Assembly: GCA_016193365.1 (NCBI GenBank)
Contig: JACPSI010000042.1
Coordinates: forward strand, 25,126-89,125
Source: Ignavibacteriales bacterium
GTDB lineage: Bacteria > Bacteroidota > Ignavibacteria > UBA10030
DNA length: 64,000 nt
Direction: 5' to 3'
Positions 3,614 to 46,929 of the stretch are shown here, piece by piece. Every line of letters starts with the position of its first letter. Within the stretch, counting starts at the first letter, position 1. The notes under the pieces were generated by a model. That model saw only the letters and a program-made list of their open reading frames with translations, was not told the DNA's origin and did not search any database. Both the position numbers and the translations under genes were made by a program.

Positions 3614-5461
3614 TTAGACCTTTTCCGTCTCTTTCATGAGTTTCATCAACTCCTGATGCCGGACGACGAACGGCATTTTGTCCGAGCCGCGTTGGGTCGC
3701 CTCTTTCAACATGCGCTGGTTTTCCTCAATTTGTTTTTGAATTGCACGCTTTTTTAGCAACGCAAGGGCATCCCTCGCGATCTGTTTGGGATCCGGTTCG
3801 TCGATTTCCTTGTTCACCCATCCTTTGCTCAACTCATACTTGCTCAATGATATGTCCGTAATGATTGCCTTTAATTCCTGATCGTCCATTTCATTCAAAA
3901 GAGAAACTGCATTGATTTCACCCAATTCACGCCAGTGGGAAAACAAATACTCCGTCAGCTTTCGAGCCCGTTCATCCGCAAACTGTTCGATCGTAACATT
4001 TTTCGAAATGAAATCGATTATTTCGCTTTGGCCCTCGAGCAACAGTTTCACGAGGTCACGTTCGGCTGAAGGCATATCGGATGTTTTGGGGACTGTGATG
4101 TCGGACAAGGTGACATCATAAACAGGAACTCGCTGAGACCCCGTTGCCTCTCTGCGTACAGGCTTGTCTTTCGAAATCCACCTCTCAAGCTCCCGGTACA
4201 GGATTGACTCGTAAATCTCGTATTTTTCGGCAACTTCTTTGATGTAGAAGTTGCGTTTGAGCTCGTCCCTCATTTTGGCAATCGATTGCACAATCGAGCG
4301 AACTGCTTCGGACTTTCGTTCCGGGGACAAAAACGCCCCCGTTTTCTGATACTGCCGTGCTTTGAAATCGATGAAGGACGTTGCCTGTTCAGCCAACTTC
4401 TGAAATTCCTTCCCGCCGTTTTTCCTAACAAACAAATCGGGGTCGTCGCCTTCGGGCAGTTCCACGACTCTCACGTCGAAATCCTGCTCAAGGGCAAGGT
4501 CCACTCCTCTCAACGTTGCACTCGACCCGGCTGAGTCGGCATCGTACACCAACGTCAACTTCCTGGAATATCGGGCGAGGAGCAGAAGTTGCTCTTCCGT
4601 TAATGCCGTTCCGCTAGATGCAACGACATTTTGAACTCCTGCCTGATACAACGAGATCAGGTCGGCATAGCCTTCGACCATCAATGCGTTGTCTTCTCCT
4701 CGGATCGCATCTTTGGAGTGGAAGAGTCCAAAGAGCACGCGGCTTTTGTTGTACATGGGCGTTTCCGGGGAATTGATGTATTTCCCGAGCGTATCATCCT
4801 CACGGATTTTGCGCGCGCCAAAAGCAATGACACGTCCCGTCGTGGCAAAAATGGGAAACATTGCCCGTCCGCGGAAGTAATCGTAATGGGTGCCATCTTC
4901 CCGGGTTCGCACAAGTCCTGCTTTCAAAAGATGTTCGAGCTTGAGGCCTTCCTCCAAAGCTTTTTTCAGAAAATTGTCCCACCGATGCAGCGAATACCCA
5001 AGGCCGAAAGCACGAATCGTGTCGTCCGTGAACCCTCTGGAATGAAAGTACTCCAGCGCCGACCTGCCCTCATCGGTTTTTGTGAGGTTGTTATGAAAAT
5101 GAAGGCCGGCGAACCTGCAGGCGTTGTAGAGCGCCTCGGTCTCCGTTTGTTGCTCAACCGAGATGTCTGCCGTCGGAAGCGCGATTCCCGCTCTCTCTGC
5201 CAGAGAACGGACAGCCTCAATGAACGAGACCTTTTCATATTCCATAACAAACGTAAACACGTTTCCGCCTTTGTGGCAGCCGAAACAATGATACATTTGC
5301 TTCTCCGGGCTTACGGTGAAGGAAGGTGTTTTTTCCTGGTGAAAAGGGCATAATCCAAGGAAATTCTTTCCCCTTTTCTTCAGGCGGACATGCGACGCAA
5401 TAATGTCAACAATATCCGAAGCCGAGCGCACTTCATCGATTTTGAAATCGGGAATTCTCAT
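3614..5461 (-). CDS. dnaG: DNA primase DnaG
   Basis: CHC2 zinc finger (LCPFHQEKTPSFTVSPEKQMYHCFGCHKGGNVFTF), then TOPRIM and C-terminal helical domains. I chose the internal ATG at 5461 (MRIPDFKIDEVRSASDIVDII...). The longest ORF start at 5680 adds a low-complexity, basic 73-aa extension that overlaps the upstream slt gene and a terminator hairpin. Confidence 0.88.
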   Translation of the reverse strand: MRIPDFKIDEVRSASDIVDIIASHVRLKKRGKNFLGLCPFHQEKTPSFTVSPEKQMYHCFGCHKGGNVFTFVMEYEKVSFIEAVRSLAERAGIALPTADISVEQQTETEALYNACRFAGLHFHNNLTKTDEGRSALEYFHSRGFTDDTIRAFGLGYSLHRWDNFLKKALEEGLKLEHLLKAGLVRTREDGTHYDYFRGRAMFPIFATTGRVIAFGARKIREDDTLGKYINSPETPMYNKSRVLFGLFHSKDAIRGEDNALMVEGYADLISLYQAGVQNVVASSGTALTEEQLLLLARYSRKLTLVYDADSAGSSATLRGVDLALEQDFDVRVVELPEGDDPDLFVRKNGGKEFQKLAEQATSFIDFKARQYQKTGAFLSPERKSEAVRSIVQSIAKMRDELKRNFYIKEVAEKYEIYESILYRELERWISKDKPVRREATGSQRVPVYDVTLSDITVPKTSDMPSAERDLVKLLLEGQSEIIDFISKNVTIEQFADERARKLTEYLFSHWRELGEINAVSLLNEMDDQELKAIITDISLSKYELSKGWVNKEIDEPDPKQIARDALALLKKRAIQKQIEENQRMLKEATQRGSDKMPFVVRHQELMKLMKETEKV

Positions 5462-5558: not shown

Positions 5559-6395
5559 TTAATCGGAGACTTGTCCTCCCTGGCGTACGGCCGCGAGAAA
5601 TCCTCTCTTTGTTCTTTCCTGCTCTTTCGTTTCCGGAACAATCGCGTTTGTGTACGCCATGGTGCCGACGGAGTTTTCATAATATCTCATGATCCTGTCC
5701 ACATAACGAACGGTCTCCTTCCATCCCTCAAAGTAACCGTTCGGCGGCCGGTCTTGTTGCCAGAGGCCCTGGTGAAGCGTGTGGTATCTTCTGGAAAGCA
5801 ACGGCAGGGCATCGCGAACAGAATCCCAGCGACTCGGGTTGTGGCCAAGATACGCGGCAATCTGTCGAGCGTCGAGGACGCGGGAAATGCCGCCATTGTA
5901 TGCCGCGAGGGCCAGGCGAATACGGTTGTCCCTGTCGGTTTCCCTGAAAATGTGATAGAGCGATCTCAGATGGAATATTCCTGCCCTCACATTATTGTCG
6001 GGAGTCCTTGTTTCCTTCACACCGAGCTGCCATTTCAGTGTCGACTCTGTCGTTGGCATGATTTGCATTAATCCGTAGGCGCCTTTGTTGCTGACCGCGT
6101 CAGATTTGAATCCCGATTCCTGTCGAATGACCGACATGATGAGAACCCAGTCGAAGTGGTATTGTCCTGAATATCTTTGGACGAGAGGGAGATAGTCAAG
6201 TTCTGCGTCCACAAGACTCGGGGTCTCTTCGGGGAATGAGGCAGCGGTAAACCCTGCCACAGAAAAATCATTCTGCAAATGTTTCTTCCGAAAAACCGAA
6301 AGGCTTGTCACCGGCTCGAAACATCCAGCATGCAGGATGCACACCAGGAGCATCGCATTTCTAACGGTGATTCGGTAACGTTTTTGTTTCAACAT
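5559..6395 (-). CDS. Lytic transglycosylase (SLT domain)
   Basis: 278 aa. SLT catalytic motif ESGFKSDAVSNKGAYGLMQIMP, and AYNGG. Confidence 0.85.
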   Translation of the reverse strand: MLKQKRYRITVRNAMLLVCILHAGCFEPVTSLSVFRKKHLQNDFSVAGFTAASFPEETPSLVDAELDYLPLVQRYSGQYHFDWVLIMSVIRQESGFKSDAVSNKGAYGLMQIMPTTESTLKWQLGVKETRTPDNNVRAGIFHLRSLYHIFRETDRDNRIRLALAAYNGGISRVLDARQIAAYLGHNPSRWDSVRDALPLLSRRYHTLHQGLWQQDRPPNGYFEGWKETVRYVDRIMRYYENSVGTMAYTNAIVPETKEQERTKRGFLAAVRQGGQVSD

Positions 6396-7938: not shown

Positions 7939-9591
<1,653 letters not shown>

Positions 9592-39515: not shown

Positions 39516-41069
39516 TCATTTTACTTTCTCTGCAATGGATTTTGCCTGCATGAAGAGAAGAAGATAATCCCTCCCGCCGGCTTTTGAATCTGTGCCAGAC
39601 ATATTAAAGCCTCCGAAGGGATGGACTCCGACAAGAGCCCCCGTGATCTTTCTGTTGATATAAAAATTACCCACGTGGAAAAACTTTTTGGCCTTTTCGA
39701 TTTTCTTCCTATTCTTGGTCCAGACGCCGCCCGTCAGCCCGAATTCCGTGTTGTTCGCGACTTCGAGTGCATCGTCAAAATTTTTCGCTTTGATGATAGC
39801 CAGAACAGGGCCAAAGATTTCCTCCTGGGCAATCGTTGCGTTCGGAGCAACATCGGCGATCACGGTTGGACGAACAAAATAGCCGTCGCCGGAGTTTTCC
39901 TTTTTTCCTCCGGTAATGAGCCGCCCGCCTTCTTTCAAACCCGCTTCAATGTATTTCAGCGTTTTTTCTTCAGAGCCTTTGTTGACCACCGGCCCCATGT
40001 AATTGTTCGGGTCCGACGAATCACCAACTTTAATTTTTCCAACTTTTTCCTTCACGAGGTCAACAAACTTGTCGTACACTTTTTCTACCACAATTGCACG
40101 CGAGGCAGCTGAACATTTTTGACCCTGAAACCCAAATGCCGACGCGACCGTCGCTTGTGCTGCCGCTTCAAGATTCGTCTCGTCGTCGATCATGATGGAA
40201 TCTTTGCCCCCCATTTCAGCAATCACTCTCTTGAGCCATCGCTGACCGGGTTGAACTTTTGCCGCAAGCTCGTTGATGTGTATTCCAACTTCCTTGGATC
40301 CAGTGAAAGCAACAAACCTTGTTTTCGGATGTGAGACCATTGTGTCACCAACTGCACCGCCGGGACCTGTGACGAAATTCAAAACTCCTGCCGGAAGTCC
40401 GACCTCGCGCATGAGGTCGAAGAGAACCCACCCTGTCAACGGCGAATCGCTGGACGGCTTGAGCACCACCGTATTGCCGGTAACGATTGCCGCGGTAGCC
40501 ATGCCCGTCAGAATCGCGAGCGGGAAATTCCACGGCGGCACAACAACGCCAACGCCCAACGGGATATAGACCAGCTCGTTTCTTTCTGTCGGAATTTTTG
40601 TGACAGGTTGCTTACCGGCGTACCTCAACATTTCGCGTCCGTAGAATTCCATAAAATCGATCGCTTCGGCGGTGTCAGCATCTGCTTCCGGCCAGGTTTT
40701 GCCGACTTCATAGACCATCACGGCGCTGAATTCATGCTTGCGCTTTCGCATGATTTTTGCGGCCTTGAACAAATAGTCGGCTCGCTTCTTCGGGTCGACA
40801 TGCTGCCAGCGCTGAAAGGCATCAGCTGCGGTTTCGACCGCCTTTGTTGCCAAGGAGGCATCCGCTTTCTGAAATGTGCCGACAACCTCGCTCGGTTTTG
40901 ACGGGTTGTAGGATTTCAACTTGTCAGCGGTGCGAATTTCCTCGCCGCCGATGACGATGGGATATTCTTTCGAAAACAGAGATTTCACTTTAGCCAACGC
41001 AACTTCCATGGCTTTGCGATTGGCGGGCTTGGAGAAATCAGTGAGGGGTTCGTTTTTAAAGGGCTTCAT
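39516..41069 (-). CDS. L-glutamate gamma-semialdehyde (1-pyrroline-5-carboxylate) dehydrogenase
   Basis: 517 aa ALDH-family. Catalytic residues in EMGGKDS...QGQKCSAASR; P5CDH-type N-terminus. Confidence 0.82.
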   Translation of the reverse strand: MKPFKNEPLTDFSKPANRKAMEVALAKVKSLFSKEYPIVIGGEEIRTADKLKSYNPSKPSEVVGTFQKADASLATKAVETAADAFQRWQHVDPKKRADYLFKAAKIMRKRKHEFSAVMVYEVGKTWPEADADTAEAIDFMEFYGREMLRYAGKQPVTKIPTERNELVYIPLGVGVVVPPWNFPLAILTGMATAAIVTGNTVVLKPSSDSPLTGWVLFDLMREVGLPAGVLNFVTGPGGAVGDTMVSHPKTRFVAFTGSKEVGIHINELAAKVQPGQRWLKRVIAEMGGKDSIMIDDETNLEAAAQATVASAFGFQGQKCSAASRAIVVEKVYDKFVDLVKEKVGKIKVGDSSDPNNYMGPVVNKGSEEKTLKYIEAGLKEGGRLITGGKKENSGDGYFVRPTVIADVAPNATIAQEEIFGPVLAIIKAKNFDDALEVANNTEFGLTGGVWTKNRKKIEKAKKFFHVGNFYINRKITGALVGVHPFGGFNMSGTDSKAGGRDYLLLFMQAKSIAEKVK

Positions 41070-41114: not shown

Positions 41115-41600
41115 TTATTTCTTTTTTTCTTGCATTTCTTTCATTGCTTCCAACTGCAAAATCATTTCCTCGTCCTTTTTCCTTCCGGCAAATTTCTTTG
41201 ACTTGATCAGCGCATTAATGCTCATAACACGGACCTTCAGTCCGAACATGCTCACCTCGGATGAGGCTTCTTCGGCCTCTTTGTAGAATCCCACGCCACC
41301 CACTTCTCCAAGAATGTCGATGTCGCCCAGCCGGGTTTCAAACGTAAAATTGAGCCCGGCTTTTAAAGTAGCTTCGTCAGCGCGAAACGGAAGGTCCTTT
41401 GGCGCTCCACGAAGAGTTGGATTCAGGGGGTGCAGGGCGCGTGCAAGGCGTTGAAGATTTTCCGGGGAACGATTATAGCAAATATGAATATCATACGTTG
41501 GAACGGTGACACCGTGAATGTTGGCCGCAAGCCCCCCTATAACAACAAACTCCACTCCCTCATTGAGGAGAGCCTTCAGCAACTCTTCGAATTGAGTCAT
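41115..41600 (-). CDS. Nucleotidyltransferase-fold protein (DUF6036-like), putative toxin-like component
   Basis: 161 aa. VEFVVIGGLAANIHGVTVPTYDIHICY resembles minimal NTase-fold proteins found in two-gene modules, and the C-terminus is K/E-rich. No exact family assignment was possible. Confidence 0.5.
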   Translation of the reverse strand: MTQFEELLKALLNEGVEFVVIGGLAANIHGVTVPTYDIHICYNRSPENLQRLARALHPLNPTLRGAPKDLPFRADEATLKAGLNFTFETRLGDIDILGEVGGVGFYKEAEEASSEVSMFGLKVRVMSINALIKSKKFAGRKKDEEMILQLEAMKEMQEKKK

Positions 41601-41793
41601 TCTCGGATAAGTCGGGATATAGTTGATTTCTGGCTTTTTTCACTTCTTCTGCAAACTTGACCCAATCCTGGAGTCGACGGAGACGCTGTTCAACGGTCAT
41701 CCTCAACGATGATTCAAGCAGAGAAATATCAATGCCGTACTCGCGCGCGCGTTCAATGGCTGATGATTGTTTGTCTTTTGGCATACGATACAA
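41560..41793 (-). CDS. Small helical protein, putative antitoxin-like partner of the downstream NTase-fold gene
   Basis: 77 aa. Predicted helical (TVEQRLRRLQDWVKFAEEVKKARNQL). It overlaps the start of the downstream ORF by 41 nt in a different frame. Confidence 0.4.
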   Translation of the reverse strand: MYRMPKDKQSSAIERAREYGIDISLLESSLRMTVEQRLRRLQDWVKFAEEVKKARNQLYPDLSENDSIRRVAEGSPQ

Positions 41794-41817
41794 ATTTAGT
41801 CAATCCCTCGCGGACAA

Positions 41818-44688
41818 TCAATGTGGAGAAGCGGCTCTCGTATTCTCACGTACGAGCGCATTCAACACCGCATCATGCACTCTCGGCCTCACGTCGAAAA
41901 TCTTGGTGCTTGCCCGGGACGGATGTACGCGATTCGTCAGAAAAACGATGATGACCTTTTTTTCCGGATCCACGACAACGGACGTCCCCGTAAAACCTGT
42001 GTGTAAGAATGTTTTCGTTGAGGTCAGCGTTCCGGAAAACGAGCGGTCTGAACTCTTCGTGTCCCATCCGATAGCTCGGCTGCTTTTGTCTGACTGGCGT
42101 GTTGTGAATTGTTTCACGGTTTCTTCTTTGATAAAACGCCTTCCTCCGTACGTACCGCCATTGAGAAGCATTTGAAGCATGATGGAAAGATCGGAGGTTG
42201 TCGAAAATAACCCCGCATGACCCGACACTCCTCCAAGTACTGCTGCATTTTCGTCGTGCACACGGCCGCGCACGGCAATACCGGTACGTTGCCAGAACGT
42301 GTCAACTTCCGTCGGAACGATGCGATCCCAGAGATCCGACGCAGGGTTGTACATGGTGTTTCGCATGCCGAGTGGCTTGAAGAACACCGAGTCGACATAT
42401 TTGTCCAGCCCGACTCCAGTGATTTTCTCTATGAGCTTTCCAATCGTGATCAAACCAAGGTCGCTGTAAATCGTGGAATCTCCCGTTTTGTAAACAAGCG
42501 GAGAAGCGAAGACGGAATCGAGGACGCATTGAGGAGTTGTGCAGAAATCGTAAAATCTCCGCCAGGCCGGAAGCCCGCTGTTATGAACCATGAGATTGTA
42601 CACAGTGAGTTTTTCTTTTCCCCGTTGTCCGAATTGTGGAAGGTGATTTACAATCGGGTCGTTTAAACTCAATTTGCCGTCATCAACCAGTCGCATGATT
42701 GCACTCGTTGTCGAGATGACTTTTGTCACCGAAGCGAGGTCGTAGATCGTATTTTCATGGACGGATTTCGAGTAAACGGCGTAGTCGAAAAACCCGTACC
42801 CTTTGTTGTACACGACGATACCATCTTTCGCAACGAGCAAGACGGCTCCGGGAAAGGCAGAATCCTTTGCGGCGGAATTTATCACGTCATCAACCAGTTT
42901 TAGTTTCTGCGAATTAAACCCCGCCTCTTCCGGAAGACCATCCCGTAACGTGAGCTTTGGATATTCTATGCCTTCACCAAATTTGTAAAGTTCCGGAATC
43001 GTAATCGGCAGTTTTCCTTTTGCCGGTTCTTCAGCAAAAATCACTTCGGCTGCCGCTTGCTGCATGCATTCAGCATCGGAGTAGGTGCAGATGTATGCGT
43101 CGAACGGCGGGAGGTCCATCGCCACGTAGGGATTCCCCCACGCAATGCCGACCATCGGCTTGCCAAGCGTTGAAAGATTCTTTACCAGCGCAACCTGATT
43201 GCTGTCGACAAAACCCGTCAACTCTCCCGAGCGCGTGTAGAGGTGAAGCTGAACCAGCAACATGTCTGCGCGCCTTGCTTTTGCCATTGTCGAATCATGG
43301 TCGAGCTGGTTGCTGTTGGGGCCTATTCTGGACCATCCCATTCTCCCGCGTCTCTGCTGCATCATGAAATGGAACGACCGGCCGTCAGAAAGATCTTCCG
43401 AGTCGGAGATAACGACGTCGAGGATTTTTGACGAATCGACCTTAGATAACGGGAGGATGTTCTTCTGATTACCCAACACCGTGACAGCATTACGGGCGAT
43501 TTCGAGTGCAAGTCGTTGATGTTCAGGAGCGCCAACAGCCTCCGCAACTTTGTCGACGTCGACAAAACGGTTAACGTTGAGGCTCATTCGCTCTTTGACA
43601 GTCAGGAGCTTTCGGACAGAATGGTCTATGCGTTCCACAGAAATCTCGCCTCTCTTGACTGCCGCAACGATCGCGTCAATGGCGATATCCACATCGACCG
43701 GCATCAGGACGATATCTGCGCCCGCTTTTACAGAAAGAACGGCGGCTTCGCCCGGAAGATATTTCTCTGAAACTCCTCTCATTTGAAGTGCGTCGGTGAC
43801 GATAAGGTCCGCAAATTGCAATTCACCTTGAAGAAGCGTTGTCGAGACGTTATGCGAGACTGTTGCAGGAATTCCGACAACGGTGTCATACGCCGGAACC
43901 GACGGATGGCCGACCATGACAGAAAGTGCTCCAGCTTGAATTGCTTCTTTGAACGGAGGAAGCTCGACCGACTGTAATCGTTCTTTGGTTAGGTTCAGGA
44001 CAGAGAGGCCAACGTGCGTGTCAATATCCGTATCGCCATGGCCGGGAAAATGCTTGATCGTTGCTATCATGCCGCCGTCTTGCGTGCCTTTGACGAAGGC
44101 GATGCCCATGTCTGTCACGAGTTTCACGTCGTCACCAAACGCGCGGGTATTAATGACAGGGTTTCTTGCGTTGTTGTTGACGTCTAAAACTGGAGCATAG
44201 TTTTGATGTATGCCAAGTGCCCGGCCTTCAAGCGCCGTTATTCTTCCCAGTTCGTATGCGTATTTTGGATTGTGCGTAGCTCCGATCGCCATTGCGCGAG
44301 GGAACATTGTGGAGTGTCGCACTCTCATGGCCACGCCGTATTCGAAGTCTCCCGCGATCAGAAGAGGAACGTCTGCCAGCTTTTGGAGTTTATTGATCTG
44401 CACTGCGTATTCGTAAACATCGCCGATGGAGAACACAAAATTGCCGATTTTGCGTTTGACTGCGAGGCGCTCCAATTCCTGCCAATGGTCGGAGTTTGCT
44501 GGATAATAGCGTCCCAGAGTCCAGAAGCAGATCAGCTGAGAGACTTTTTCTTCAAGTGTCAGGCGCTTCAGCGTCGATTCCACCCAGGCAGACGACGTTT
44601 GTCGGGTTTGGGAAGACTTGGGAACCGAACCGGCGCAACCGAGCAGAAGGAGTCCGATGGCTGCACAGAGGGTGACGAATTTTTTCAT
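41818..44688 (-). CDS. Bifunctional lipoprotein: glycoside hydrolase family 3 (NagZ-like) N-terminal domain fused to a class-C beta-lactamase/serine-hydrolase domain
   Basis: 956 aa. Lipoprotein signal (LLLGCAGS), GH3 region (AGDFEYGVAMRV..., KHFPGHGDTDIDTH), then S-x-x-K (ASVTK) and a YSD-like motif for the beta-lactamase fold. Confidence 0.85.
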   Translation of the reverse strand: MKKFVTLCAAIGLLLLGCAGSVPKSSQTRQTSSAWVESTLKRLTLEEKVSQLICFWTLGRYYPANSDHWQELERLAVKRKIGNFVFSIGDVYEYAVQINKLQKLADVPLLIAGDFEYGVAMRVRHSTMFPRAMAIGATHNPKYAYELGRITALEGRALGIHQNYAPVLDVNNNARNPVINTRAFGDDVKLVTDMGIAFVKGTQDGGMIATIKHFPGHGDTDIDTHVGLSVLNLTKERLQSVELPPFKEAIQAGALSVMVGHPSVPAYDTVVGIPATVSHNVSTTLLQGELQFADLIVTDALQMRGVSEKYLPGEAAVLSVKAGADIVLMPVDVDIAIDAIVAAVKRGEISVERIDHSVRKLLTVKERMSLNVNRFVDVDKVAEAVGAPEHQRLALEIARNAVTVLGNQKNILPLSKVDSSKILDVVISDSEDLSDGRSFHFMMQQRRGRMGWSRIGPNSNQLDHDSTMAKARRADMLLVQLHLYTRSGELTGFVDSNQVALVKNLSTLGKPMVGIAWGNPYVAMDLPPFDAYICTYSDAECMQQAAAEVIFAEEPAKGKLPITIPELYKFGEGIEYPKLTLRDGLPEEAGFNSQKLKLVDDVINSAAKDSAFPGAVLLVAKDGIVVYNKGYGFFDYAVYSKSVHENTIYDLASVTKVISTTSAIMRLVDDGKLSLNDPIVNHLPQFGQRGKEKLTVYNLMVHNSGLPAWRRFYDFCTTPQCVLDSVFASPLVYKTGDSTIYSDLGLITIGKLIEKITGVGLDKYVDSVFFKPLGMRNTMYNPASDLWDRIVPTEVDTFWQRTGIAVRGRVHDENAAVLGGVSGHAGLFSTTSDLSIMLQMLLNGGTYGGRRFIKEETVKQFTTRQSDKSSRAIGWDTKSSDRSFSGTLTSTKTFLHTGFTGTSVVVDPEKKVIIVFLTNRVHPSRASTKIFDVRPRVHDAVLNALVRENTRAASPH

Positions 44689-44845: not shown

Positions 44846-44912
44846 GTCATTGCGAGCGTTGTACAGCGAAGCAATCTCACCAGGACGACTCCGCGTCGAG
44901 CCTGTCAGATGT
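44846..44912. repeat. Copy A of a ~70-100 nt inverted-repeat element (homolog of 47832-47928)
   Basis: gtcattgcgagcg...agcgaagcaatctcaccagg...cgcgtcgagcctgtcagatg aligns segment-by-segment with gtcattctgag...agcgaagaatctgattccagg...cgctcgactcagaatgac at 47832. It overlaps the last codons of the DUF4153 gene. Confidence 0.45.
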
Positions 44913-46275
44913 ATCCGAACACAGGCGGAAAGACGATAACGACGATGGCAGCCCACACGGCGTAGACGGGCAAGTAGTTCGTCTGCCATCGCTCAAGGTC
45001 CGTGAACGATCCACGTTCCCTCAAAAAGCGGATGTACAGAACGGCCGACCATGCGAGATTGACGAGGAGGATCACGTTAACCCCCAGAGCGGCCACTCGG
45101 TTAGGGGTGAAGCCGAACTCAGTAATGCGCGCGGAAATCGCCCACAGCGCTACCGCGTCGACCAACAACGCACTGACCACCAGCACCACCTGCATGACAT
45201 CGAAGGGGCCGGCAGGCATTCGGGCATCCCGCGCGGAAACGGAATAGAGCAGCAGGCCCAGGACGACAACCAGGAGAAGGTCAAAGGCGATGAGGACCTC
45301 GCGTTCGATGTCCAGGCCGCGCCCGGTCCAGATCAAAGTCGCTAAGAATGTGACCAGCAGCGCGGCGAAGAAGGGGGTGAAGAGTCGCGTCAACACGGGA
45401 GCCATGTTTTCGATCACGCTCTGCTTTGCCTCCACCAGCCAGGAAGCGACGAGGACGGCCCCGGCAGCCCCGCACGGGATCAGCCACGATTGGATGAACC
45501 ACTCGGCGTCGATGCCGATGGTTTTGAACATCATCATGAGGAACGCGGTGAGCACACCGCCCCCGAGCGCGATCAGGACGTAGTAGATGAACAGCTCGCC
45601 GGAGAATCGAATGAAGTCCATGCGGCCGGCGACCTCATTCCATCGGCTTCCTGCGTATGCAACACCGACTGCGACCCAGAGGGCGATCGGCAAGTGCAGT
45701 GCTGTCAGTGACTCAGTGGAGCCGGGCGACGCGAAGGGATAAACGTTGGCGAACACACCCGCGGCGACGATCGGCGCCGCCAACCACGGAACCGTCTTGG
45801 CGCCGAGCCGGCGCTTCCAGATGAAATAACCGGTCAGGAGCGGCAGTACGAAGAGACTCAGGTTGCGTGCATAGAAGCTCTCATTCTCCTTAAGGTCCAT
45901 CCCGAAAAGTTCGGGCAGCTTGATAAGCATGGCCGCAGCGACCGCAAGAAAAAAGGCGACGAATGCATCCGACCGCACTCCTGCTCCCTGCTCCCTCGAA
46001 TCCGACGGAAGAACGACGAGCTGTTTCCAGAGGCGGTCTGAGTGCTCGCGCGCGAACTCGCGTGAGAGGGCATCGAGCGCCCCCATGCGTTTCACCGCCA
46101 CAAGAAACGCCTCATCAGGGACGAGTCCCGCGTTCATGAGTCCCGCGATCTGTTCGCGCAGATGGTCTTCCAGCTCCGCCACATCAACAGAATGGATCGC
46201 CTGCCGGCGAAGGAGATAGCTCCGCCACTGGTCGATCTGCTCCTCGAGCGTTACTGTATTCGCTGGTGTCGTCAT
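44905..46275 (-). CDS. DUF4153 domain polytopic membrane protein
   Basis: 456 aa with about 10 TM helices and a cytoplasmic N-terminal region. It is markedly GC-richer than its neighbours and immediately downstream of a PadR regulator. Confidence 0.68.
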   Translation of the reverse strand: MTTPANTVTLEEQIDQWRSYLLRRQAIHSVDVAELEDHLREQIAGLMNAGLVPDEAFLVAVKRMGALDALSREFAREHSDRLWKQLVVLPSDSREQGAGVRSDAFVAFFLAVAAAMLIKLPELFGMDLKENESFYARNLSLFVLPLLTGYFIWKRRLGAKTVPWLAAPIVAAGVFANVYPFASPGSTESLTALHLPIALWVAVGVAYAGSRWNEVAGRMDFIRFSGELFIYYVLIALGGGVLTAFLMMMFKTIGIDAEWFIQSWLIPCGAAGAVLVASWLVEAKQSVIENMAPVLTRLFTPFFAALLVTFLATLIWTGRGLDIEREVLIAFDLLLVVVLGLLLYSVSARDARMPAGPFDVMQVVLVVSALLVDAVALWAISARITEFGFTPNRVAALGVNVILLVNLAWSAVLYIRFLRERGSFTDLERWQTNYLPVYAVWAAIVVIVFPPVFGYI

Positions 46276-46278
46276 AGC

Positions 46279-46674
46279 TCAGGCTCCTTGTGGAAGTGGT
46301 GTTGCAAACGCCGCGGTGCCAACCGGAATGAAAATGGAGAGCGCTTTCCAGATGCCGCGCAGCGTCGCGTCAACGGCCTGCCACTGCCGCCGTTCATCGG
46401 TGAGATGCGCCTTGCCCCTGGACGTGATGCGGTAGTACTTGCGACGGCGGCCGCTCCCCGCGACCTCCCATCGCGCCTCGACGTAGCCGAGTCGCTCGAG
46501 CCGATGGAGAACGGGATAGAGCATCCCGTCCGTCCACTCCATACGACCTCCGGACAGTTCTTGAACTCGCTTGATAATGGCGTAGCCGTAGCTGTCCTTT
46601 TTGGCCAGGATTGCCAAAACGATAGGGGTTGAGGAAGCGGCTATCAGGTCCTTGTTGAAGTCCATGGTTTCCAT
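46279..46674 (-). CDS. PadR-family transcriptional regulator
   Basis: Winged helix (ILAILAKKDSYGYAIIKRVQELSGGRMEWTDGMLYPVLHRLERLGYVEARWE). The start was chosen at METMDF..., because the longer ORF to 46755 adds a hydrophobic non-PadR leader. Candidate operator ACATA-N11-TATGT at 46721-46743 upstream. Confidence 0.8.
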   Translation of the reverse strand: METMDFNKDLIAASSTPIVLAILAKKDSYGYAIIKRVQELSGGRMEWTDGMLYPVLHRLERLGYVEARWEVAGSGRRRKYYRITSRGKAHLTDERRQWQAVDATLRGIWKALSIFIPVGTAAFATPLPQGA

Positions 46675-46929
46675 GCGTCGCGCTGGGTTAGTGAATTCGT
46701 GCGATTCTGCATGAGGCAATATACATAGAAGTGTTAGGTATGTCAAGCCTTGCATGTTTTTTTCTTGAGAACTCCGAAGTGACAGTTAGAGACGATGAGC
46801 TCGACAGGTATTTCGAGGCGGTACTAGGAGAGAGATTGGGAGATTGCCGAAGCCTACGTTCAGTATTGTTGCATCGGGATCCATTGGCACGTTGTTATGA
46901 AAGAAGGTGTGGAGAAGCCTTGTCGGGGT

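Follow-up and report, generated by a model that had tools for sequence, protein, structure and literature searches.

The two overlapping minus-strand genes described here lie at positions 41115-41784 of the window, a 64,000-nucleotide (nt) stretch of contig JACPSI010000042.1 from an Ignavibacteriales bacterium, and encode a helical protein of 74 amino acids (aa) and a nucleotidyltransferase (NTase) of 161 aa. We read them as a toxin-antitoxin-type module of the MenAT1/AbiE kind, and assign this reading a probability of about 0.58. The likeness to MenT1 is drawn from a family profile that places an hGG motif, a T-x-D-x-D motif and a Lys on the active-site residues of that toxin. The toxin-antitoxin interpretation is drawn from the linkage of the two parts in all loci considered (84/84), from partners bearing a helix-turn-helix (HTH), from natural fusions, from the patchy spread of the module, and from a partner similar in size to MenA1. 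The module has the following features:

41560-41784, minus strand: small partner gene, 74 aa from an ATG at 41784; putative antitoxin or NTase-binding subunit.
41115-41600, minus strand: NTase gene, 161 aa, ATG start; DUF2204/DUF6036 neighbourhood, MenT1-like; putative toxin.
41560-41600, minus strand: 41-nt overlap of the small gene and the NTase gene, the NTase frame being +1 relative to the small open reading frame (ORF).
41532-41540, minus strand: motif I of the NTase, I21-G22-G23 (hGG), aligned with the VGG of MenT1.
41484-41498, minus strand: motif II region of the NTase, T35-Y-D37-I-H39; the family consensus is T-x-D-x-D, and the second metal-binding Asp is His here.
41172-41198, minus strand: C-terminal catalytic helix motif of the NTase, K135-K-F-A-G-R140-K-K142-D143, with K135 aligned with MenT1 K137.

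A preliminary description of the sequence had reported two ORFs of 77 and 161 aa overlapping by 41 nt, and a peptide VIGGLAANIHGVTVPTYDIHICY and a K/E-rich tail in the longer product; all of these are present, and only the start of the small gene needs refinement. In the ORF listing the small ORF begins with a TTG (41560-41793, minus strand, 77 aa). The ATG at 41784 (74 aa, MPKDKQ...) is the likelier start, because homologues of 73-76 aa begin there and the NCBI record is a 74-aa product, HYY49_04510 (P0121, from an Ignavibacteriales metagenome-assembled genome, MAG; proteins and loci of this study are cited by P and L numbers, respectively), which is 100% identical to the 74-aa protein. The rejected TTG (41793-41791) falls within a conserved promoter-like TAAATTTG box.

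Pfam places the 161-aa protein in the DUF2204/DUF6036 neighbourhood, in agreement with its initial assignment as a minimal, DUF6036-like NTase. The protein matches DUF2204 (PF09970, NTP_transf clan) with 26.0 bits (E 8.4e-06) against a gathering threshold of 20.3, and reaches 19.0 bits for DUF6036 (PF19502), below the gathering threshold of 23.6. Among its 95 NTase relatives, the set used for all conservation counts, 74 match DUF2204 and 74 match DUF6036 at E<=0.01 (best 2.5e-08 for the latter), and by these scores the family borders on the DUF6036 model. No homologue was found in 50,697 phage records, and the plasmid search gave two distant full-length matches only.

Residues G22, T35, R44, R64, N84, K135, R140, and D143 are invariant in 95/95 NTase sequences, and near-invariant positions include G23, D95, and E99 (94 sequences each), D37 and K142 (93 each), and D39 (92). 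In the alignment of the family profile with MenT1, the hGG motif, T35-x-D37-x-D39, and K135 fall on the GG, T39-x-D41-x-D43, and K137 of the toxin, and T35 and K135 match the phospho-acceptor and catalytic Lys positions of MenT proteins. In MenT1 itself, D41xD43 coordinates Mg2+ and K137 binds the nucleoside triphosphate (NTP), with D41 and K137 required for activity; T39 is auto-phosphorylated on binding of the antitoxin MenA1, and S78 is the equivalent phospho-acceptor of MenT3 (PMC11375011). The combination of motif I hG[GS] and motif II DxD that characterizes AbiEii and MenT proteins is present in the family as a whole, but not in the window copy (D37-I-H39). Hence the early remark that a canonical DxD motif is missing holds for the window protein and fails for its family (hGG...DxD, Asp39 in 92/95), which on these motifs is a canonical and probably active NTase; the AbiE-like resemblance noted at the same time is supported.

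Searches of the PDB with the single NTase sequence and with its profile returned only TM1012, plus MenT1 at E 0.16, and a structure comparison was therefore needed. The AlphaFold2 model of the NTase, built from 95 sequences (predicted local distance difference test score, pLDDT, 96; predicted template modelling score, pTM, 0.90), ends in two helices and has a Pol-beta NTase fold similar to the solved MenT structures. TM1012 (PDB 2EWR/2FCL/4HX0), an uncharacterized Thermotoga NTase of similar length (~160-170 aa), gives the best sequence match in the PDB (profile E 0.0017) and the top Foldseek match; the sequence alignment covers only the N-terminal 40 residues, and TM1012 differs from the window NTase in having no described partner protein.

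The closest functional parallel is drawn with MenAT1 of Mycobacterium tuberculosis (antitoxin Rv0078B, toxin MenT1 Rv0078A), likewise a two-gene module, in which the three active-site motifs are in register with those of the family. Its antitoxin MenA1 is a helical protein of 68 aa without a DNA-binding domain (PMC10435456); the window partner is likewise a helical protein of about 70 (74) aa, and has no Pfam domain that would indicate binding to DNA. The two modules differ in several respects. Identity between the NTases is only about 19-22%, and the MenT1 chain has 195-196 residues with a four-helix bundle (PMC10435456), against 161 aa and two predicted terminal helices in the window protein. 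Furthermore, MenT1 has DxD where the window copy has DxH, and the small family, in which fused and HTH-bearing forms exist, has no detectable sequence relation to MenA1. MenT1 itself is not toxic in E. coli. AbiE (AbiEi/AbiEii) and MenAT3/MenAT4 (DUF1814 toxins, COG5340 antitoxins) are less similar in size, their toxins being ~290 aa long. The antitoxins of these systems, roughly 200-300 aa long and composed of a winged HTH and an NTase-like domain, are unrelated to the 74-aa partner.

A genome scan identified NTase relatives in at least 543 species genomes and supplied 80 loci; linkage was counted over 84 NTase-selected loci. In 76/84 loci, the hidden Markov model (HMM) of the small protein has a match either immediately upstream of the NTase gene and in its orientation, or in the NTase ORF itself; the small ORF is thus no accident of the sequence. 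The remaining eight loci carry a diverged small domain or, in L043, a contig-truncated one. In total, 84/84 loci, from more than 10 phyla, have a small domain immediately upstream of the NTase or joined to it in one chain, with no small-domain match elsewhere in these loci. Reverse look-ups starting from four stand-alone small proteins yielded seven further loci (L085-L091), all with an overlapping gene of 141-167 aa downstream, which belongs to DUF2204/DUF6036 wherever Pfam data are on record. The pairing across genomes for which the preliminary description had proposed a neighbourhood check is therefore conserved. The family is present in Ignavibacteriae, Acidobacteriota, Gemmatimonadota, Planctomycetota, Chloroflexota, Myxococcota, Nitrospirota, Latescibacterota, Actinomycetota, and other groups. 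Two copies of the module occur on different contigs of one Acidobacteriota MAG (L056, L064), and two lie within 5 kb of each other in a Gemmatimonadota MAG (positions 3614-4227, plus strand, and 7985-8615, minus strand, of the 10-kb locus L078). A pair of small, closely coupled, co-directional genes with conserved pairing and patchy distribution corresponds to the generic organization of type II toxin-antitoxin systems.

The stop-start relation was determined for 74 split pairs. The most frequent arrangement is a 4-nt (ATGA-type) overlap (31 pairs), followed by overlaps of 8-17 nt (21 pairs, 13 of them with 14 nt) and of 41-50 nt (7 pairs); the genes are separated by 2-20 nt in 13 pairs, and never by more than 20 nt. 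The 41-nt overlap of the window pair recurs in L001, L002, L094, and L095. A programmed +1 frameshift that would produce a fused protein was considered and is not needed, as most split pairs overlap by only 4-14 nt. The 41-nt overlap is explained more simply as the scar of a gene fission; the conserved tail of the small protein (SIRRVAEG) would then follow from conservation of the NTase N-terminus, which the overlap encodes in a different frame.

Many NTase relatives are single chains of 226-258 aa with an N-terminal extension that carries the small-protein motif: their ...YGGYQVYSESGVDLTLLRENLKRS.EER... corresponds to ...AREYGIDISLLESSLRMTVEQR... of the window small protein. The two parts have thus been both fused and split in nature. 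The model of a fused relative (pLDDT 91.6, pTM 0.87) shows an N-domain composed of a beta-hairpin, a short helix and a long helix (pLDDT ~90), which is joined to the NTase by a less confident linker of ~15 residues. Since a floating 55-residue domain would not allow a pTM of 0.87, we infer that in this model the N-domain docks on the NTase. CapRel(SJ46) is a fused toxin-antitoxin protein based on a RelA/SpoT-like enzyme. The relatives of 226-258 aa resemble it, by analogy only, in joining a putative neutralizing domain and an enzyme through a flexible linker, and differ from it in belonging to a Pol-beta NTase family and in having the regulatory domain at the N-terminus. By this analogy, the fused form would have the architecture expected of an auto-inhibited toxin released by a trigger.

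In Gemmatimonadota relatives, an Xre-type HTH_3 domain precedes the small domain (L069, positions 730-1155, 51.5 bits; L072, 46.4 bits; L074, positions 5588-5992, 36.3 bits), and in L072 (667-1572) the HTH, the small domain, and the NTase form an unusual three-part single chain encoded by one 269-aa ORF. The two plasmid matches mentioned above (L096, L097) are actinobacterial and encode distant NTase homologues (34-37% identity) with a T-E-D-A-D motif, which are annotated as 'hypothetical protein' in RefSeq; each of them follows a gene whose product is annotated as 'helix-turn-helix transcriptional regulator' and has a C-terminal [ST]-x-E-R-helix signature.

The small protein is helical, contains no histidine anywhere in its 74 aa, and has the core motif E-Y-G-I-D-I-S-L-L-x-x-x-L-x-x-T-x-E-Q-R, with G17, D19, L22, L23, and R34 invariant when it is aligned with the fused relatives. 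It has 15 close homologues, at least six of which share a contig with an NTase homologue (e.g., HY961_12550 and HY961_12555). The profile of the small family matches 2014 proteins at E<=1e-3 among 1.84 billion cluster representatives (50%-identity clusters). Most of these members are 50-130 aa long; the domain is duplicated in tandem in some, and others, of 216-244 aa, are fused to an NTase. The small protein of the window belongs to no Pfam or NCBIfam family, and a Pfam scan of 131 family members likewise gave essentially no family (one HTH_17 and one MerR match). Against the PDB, the family profile has no detectable relation to any chain, MenA1 included; low-scoring matches to PPR-repeat and Trp-repressor chains are spurious and were rejected as composition artefacts. 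Tandem G-[IV]-D...[ST]-x-E-R domains are found in P0149, P0157, P0182, P0193, P0215, and P0255 (92-163 aa), and recall the binding of one MenA1 to two MenT1 protomers.

By analogy with the MenT toxins, which extend tRNA 3' ends (PMC10435456, PMC7450476), an active NTase of this family would most likely add nucleotides to the 3' end of an RNA, tRNA acceptor stems being the precedent, and would thereby arrest translation. The small protein, encoded upstream, would bind the NTase in a 1:1 or 1:2 ratio and keep it inactive. It could do so through occlusion of the active-site face, and possibly also by causing the NTase to phosphorylate itself, as MenA1 does with MenT1; the invariant Thr, located two positions ahead of the DxD motif, makes such a step plausible. 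The small domain may also complete a helical bundle resembling the C-terminal domain of MenT1. In some lineages, fusion of the small domain to the NTase N-terminus would give an auto-inhibited single chain, and in others its location after an Xre HTH would give an antitoxin with a DNA-binding domain. In the window, a vertically inherited and possibly decaying copy would persist between the GH3/beta-lactamase and P5C dehydrogenase genes.

The history of the locus is informative in this respect. The flanking genes, GH3/beta-lactamase and aldehyde (pyrroline-5-carboxylate, P5C) dehydrogenase, are kept in five relatives with NTase identities of 98% (L092), 76% (L093 and L094), 68% (L001), and 66% (L095), synteny being judged on whichever flanks each contig covers, and they have diverged in parallel with the module (~74-76% nucleotide identity). 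Since the neighbours are the same across this range of NTase identity, the module is an old, vertically inherited accessory resident of its locus rather than a recent insertion. Its guanine-cytosine (GC) content (0.46-0.51) is that of the flanks and gives no compositional sign of recent transfer, no mobile or defence genes adjoin the module in the window, and no integrases or defence genes were seen beside it in the relatives' loci. The suggestion that the pair had been inserted among housekeeping genes as a selfish or defence islet is not supported by these observations, and PADLOC returned nothing significant. Loci from other phyla have unrelated housekeeping genes beside the module, among them nuo genes with an ABC transporter, a nucleobase permease with an amidohydrolase, accD, and parAB; as its surroundings differ in this way, the module has moved in the long term.

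The window copy itself has lost a residue that the family retains. Position 39 is Asp in 92/95 relatives and His only in the window (codon CAT, 41486-41484) and in the 98%-identical P0001 of L092, whereas the 93%-identical P0002 retains D-I-D. With His in place of the second metal-binding Asp, the window NTase is probably weakened or dead, judging from its sequence. The closest relative, L092 (a contig of Logan assembly SRR12113431), differs from the window at 21 of 1483 positions (98.6% nucleotide identity). Two-thirds of these differences (14/21) fall within the 679-nt module and comprise five amino-acid changes, one nonsense codon, and synonymous changes; the other seven lie in the adjoining GH3 gene, all at 3-nt spacing. 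The nonsense codon, W41* (TGG to TAG, window equivalent 41663), truncates the small ORF of L092, whose NTase shares D39H. Loss of NTase catalysis followed by truncation of the partner is the order expected for an inactivated toxin with a dispensable antitoxin, and this pattern was counted for the toxin-antitoxin reading; coming from one sequence pair, it is weak evidence.

On these grounds the module is possibly decaying, and the window copy could be a non-functional remnant, its NTase catalytically dead and the pair drifting toward loss, an alternative to which we give somewhat less than even odds. It is favoured by the substitution at the equivalent of the Mg2+-coordinating D43 of MenT1, by the nonsense codon of L092, and by the concentration of changes within the module. 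However, neither ORF is disrupted in the window, His is still able to bind metal ions, all other invariant NTase residues are kept, and synonymous changes between the window and L092 NTase genes equal or exceed the non-synonymous ones. The W41* codon is also weakened as a sign of decay by the finding that residues 1-32 of MenA1 suffice for antitoxicity (PMC10435456).

Several results weigh against the toxin-antitoxin reading as such. The window NTase has no match to Pfam AbiEii/DUF1814 (PF08843) at E<=1, and only 12/95 relatives match this model, weakly (best 2.8e-05). Neither window protein is significantly matched in NCBIfam, where TraB and GspE matches are far under their thresholds; in PADLOC-DB v2 the NTase is unmatched, and the small protein has two marginal matches only (E 0.0023 and 0.016), neither of them significant. 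A literature search on DUF2204 and DUF6036 (PF09970, PF19502, COG4914) found nothing relevant. The NTase family is acidic (median isoelectric point, pI, 5.5) and the small family basic (median pI 8.8), which is the reverse of the common pattern of a basic toxin and an acidic antitoxin. L092 is a single short contig, so that W41* may be an assembly error. Finally, the frequency of fused forms, and the retention of one chromosomal locus while NTase identity falls from 98 to 66%, would also fit an ordinary two-part enzyme.

Such an enzyme, for metabolism or resistance, would nucleotidylate a small molecule, as LnuA and ANT(2'') do, with the small domain as an obligatory structural, lid, or substrate-binding subunit and no toxin-antitoxin relation between the two parts; we consider this unlikely. 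In addition to the stable chromosomal position through long divergence in Ignavibacteria and the charges of the two families, it is favoured by weak matches of 9/95 relatives to Pfam Aminoglyc_resit (ANT(2'') family), by similarity to LnuA, ANT(2''), and TM1012, and by the frequency of fusions with, in the model, a confidently docked N-domain. Nonetheless, MenT1 is the top structural match, and T-x-D-x-D and the Lys agree with it residue for residue, whereas LnuA and ANT(2'')-Ia (15-18% identity) are single-gene resistance enzymes acting on small molecules and have no conserved small partner. The invariant basic residues R44, R64, K135, and R140, together with K142, fit the binding of a triphosphate or a nucleic acid. 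An Xre HTH on the partner, as found in several relatives, is a feature characteristic of antitoxins that enzyme subunits seldom have, and the patchy, sometimes multi-copy distribution in unrelated genomic contexts also argues against a two-part enzyme. The third alternative, a type VII module of the MNT-HEPN kind in which the NTase would be the antitoxin and modify a toxic partner, is favoured only by the general resemblance (a minimal NTase beside a small gene) noted in the preliminary description, and the lack of a HEPN partner effectively refutes it: the helical 74-aa protein, lacking histidine, has no Rx4-6H motif, it has no Pfam HEPN match, the small gene precedes the NTase, and Polbeta/NTP_transf_2-type Pfam matches are essentially absent from the family (1/95 relatives).

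The pair recognized here as a putative toxin-antitoxin module is part of a run of co-directional, closely spaced genes. The order on the minus strand is the GH3/beta-lactamase fusion (41818-44688), the small gene, the NTase gene, the P5C dehydrogenase gene (39516-41069), a gene for a zinc-ribbon protein, and sucC. One further feature was found upstream of the module:

41791-41822, minus strand: promoter-like element ATTG-N20-TAAATTTG; it overlaps the GH3 stop codon, and its end lies 6 nt short of the small-gene ATG.

The ATTG, TA, and TT columns of this element are invariant in five syntenic loci, and the surrounding intergenic DNA is divergent. Its ATTG-N20-TA..TT.. pattern resembles the Bacteroidetes -33/-7 consensus (TTTG / TAnnTTTG), and this resemblance suggests that the pair may have its own promoter. 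Given the distance of just 6 nt between the element and the ATG, transcripts may lack a leader or carry a very short one. A scan for sigma-70 promoters and terminators gave chance-level results only, and the whole window has no Rfam match.

The upstream neighbour (41818-44688, minus strand) encodes a 956-aa protein with a lipoprotein-like N-terminus, in which GH3 N and C domains are fused to a beta-lactamase/penicillin-binding-protein-like domain. A gene for a BcrAD_BadFG-type ATPase precedes this fusion in relatives (L001, 1582-5735; L095, 1675-5678), and the neighbourhood looks like a conserved cell-wall-recycling cluster. Further upstream, the segment 44905-46755 (minus strand) has a GC content of 0.59-0.62, compared with ~0.50 in its surroundings. 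It comprises a gene for a PadR-family regulator (46279-46755; PF03551, 87 bits) directly upstream of a gene for a 456-aa multi-pass membrane protein without a Pfam match (44905-46275), and the two may be a horizontally acquired pair. Among the relatives' loci, planctomycete-type ones have a gene of the Uma2 endonuclease family (PF05685) immediately upstream of the module, at 10-25 nt, both where the module is fused (L004, 5388-5990) and where it is split (L085/L086, 3350-3976), and this association may be recurrent. On the Ignavibacteriae contig L002 (384-1054), a gene for a 133-aa PIN_2-domain protein and an overlapping upstream gene of 90 aa are located ~5 kb from the NTase module and look like a separate toxin-antitoxin pair.

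The principle of an NTase toxin controlled by a cognate antitoxin is already known. The NTase family described here is catalogued only under domains of unknown function, and none of Pfam, NCBIfam, and PADLOC contains a model for its partner domain. We tentatively propose that the small G-[IV]-D-x-[ST]-L-L...[ST]-x-E-R domain may be an undescribed, widespread antitoxin-type domain dedicated to minimal NTases of the DUF2204/DUF6036 type. It could define a large new MenT/AbiEii-like branch in environmental phyla, with split, tandem-duplicated, HTH-extended, and single-chain (possibly trigger-sensing) forms and with neutralization maybe proceeding through Thr auto-phosphorylation. If this is true, a role as MenT/AbiEii-like toxins would give the DUF2204 and DUF6036 families a functional context, and a large family of small proteins without a Pfam model would become their cognate neutralizing domain. 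As a natural set, the split, fused, duplicated, and HTH-extended forms would help in studying the control of NTase toxins, and in testing the generality of the antitoxin-induced auto-phosphorylation described for MenT1 and MenT3. For the source genome, the pair is an old, vertically inherited accessory module with a substituted metal-binding residue, and not a recently acquired defence islet.

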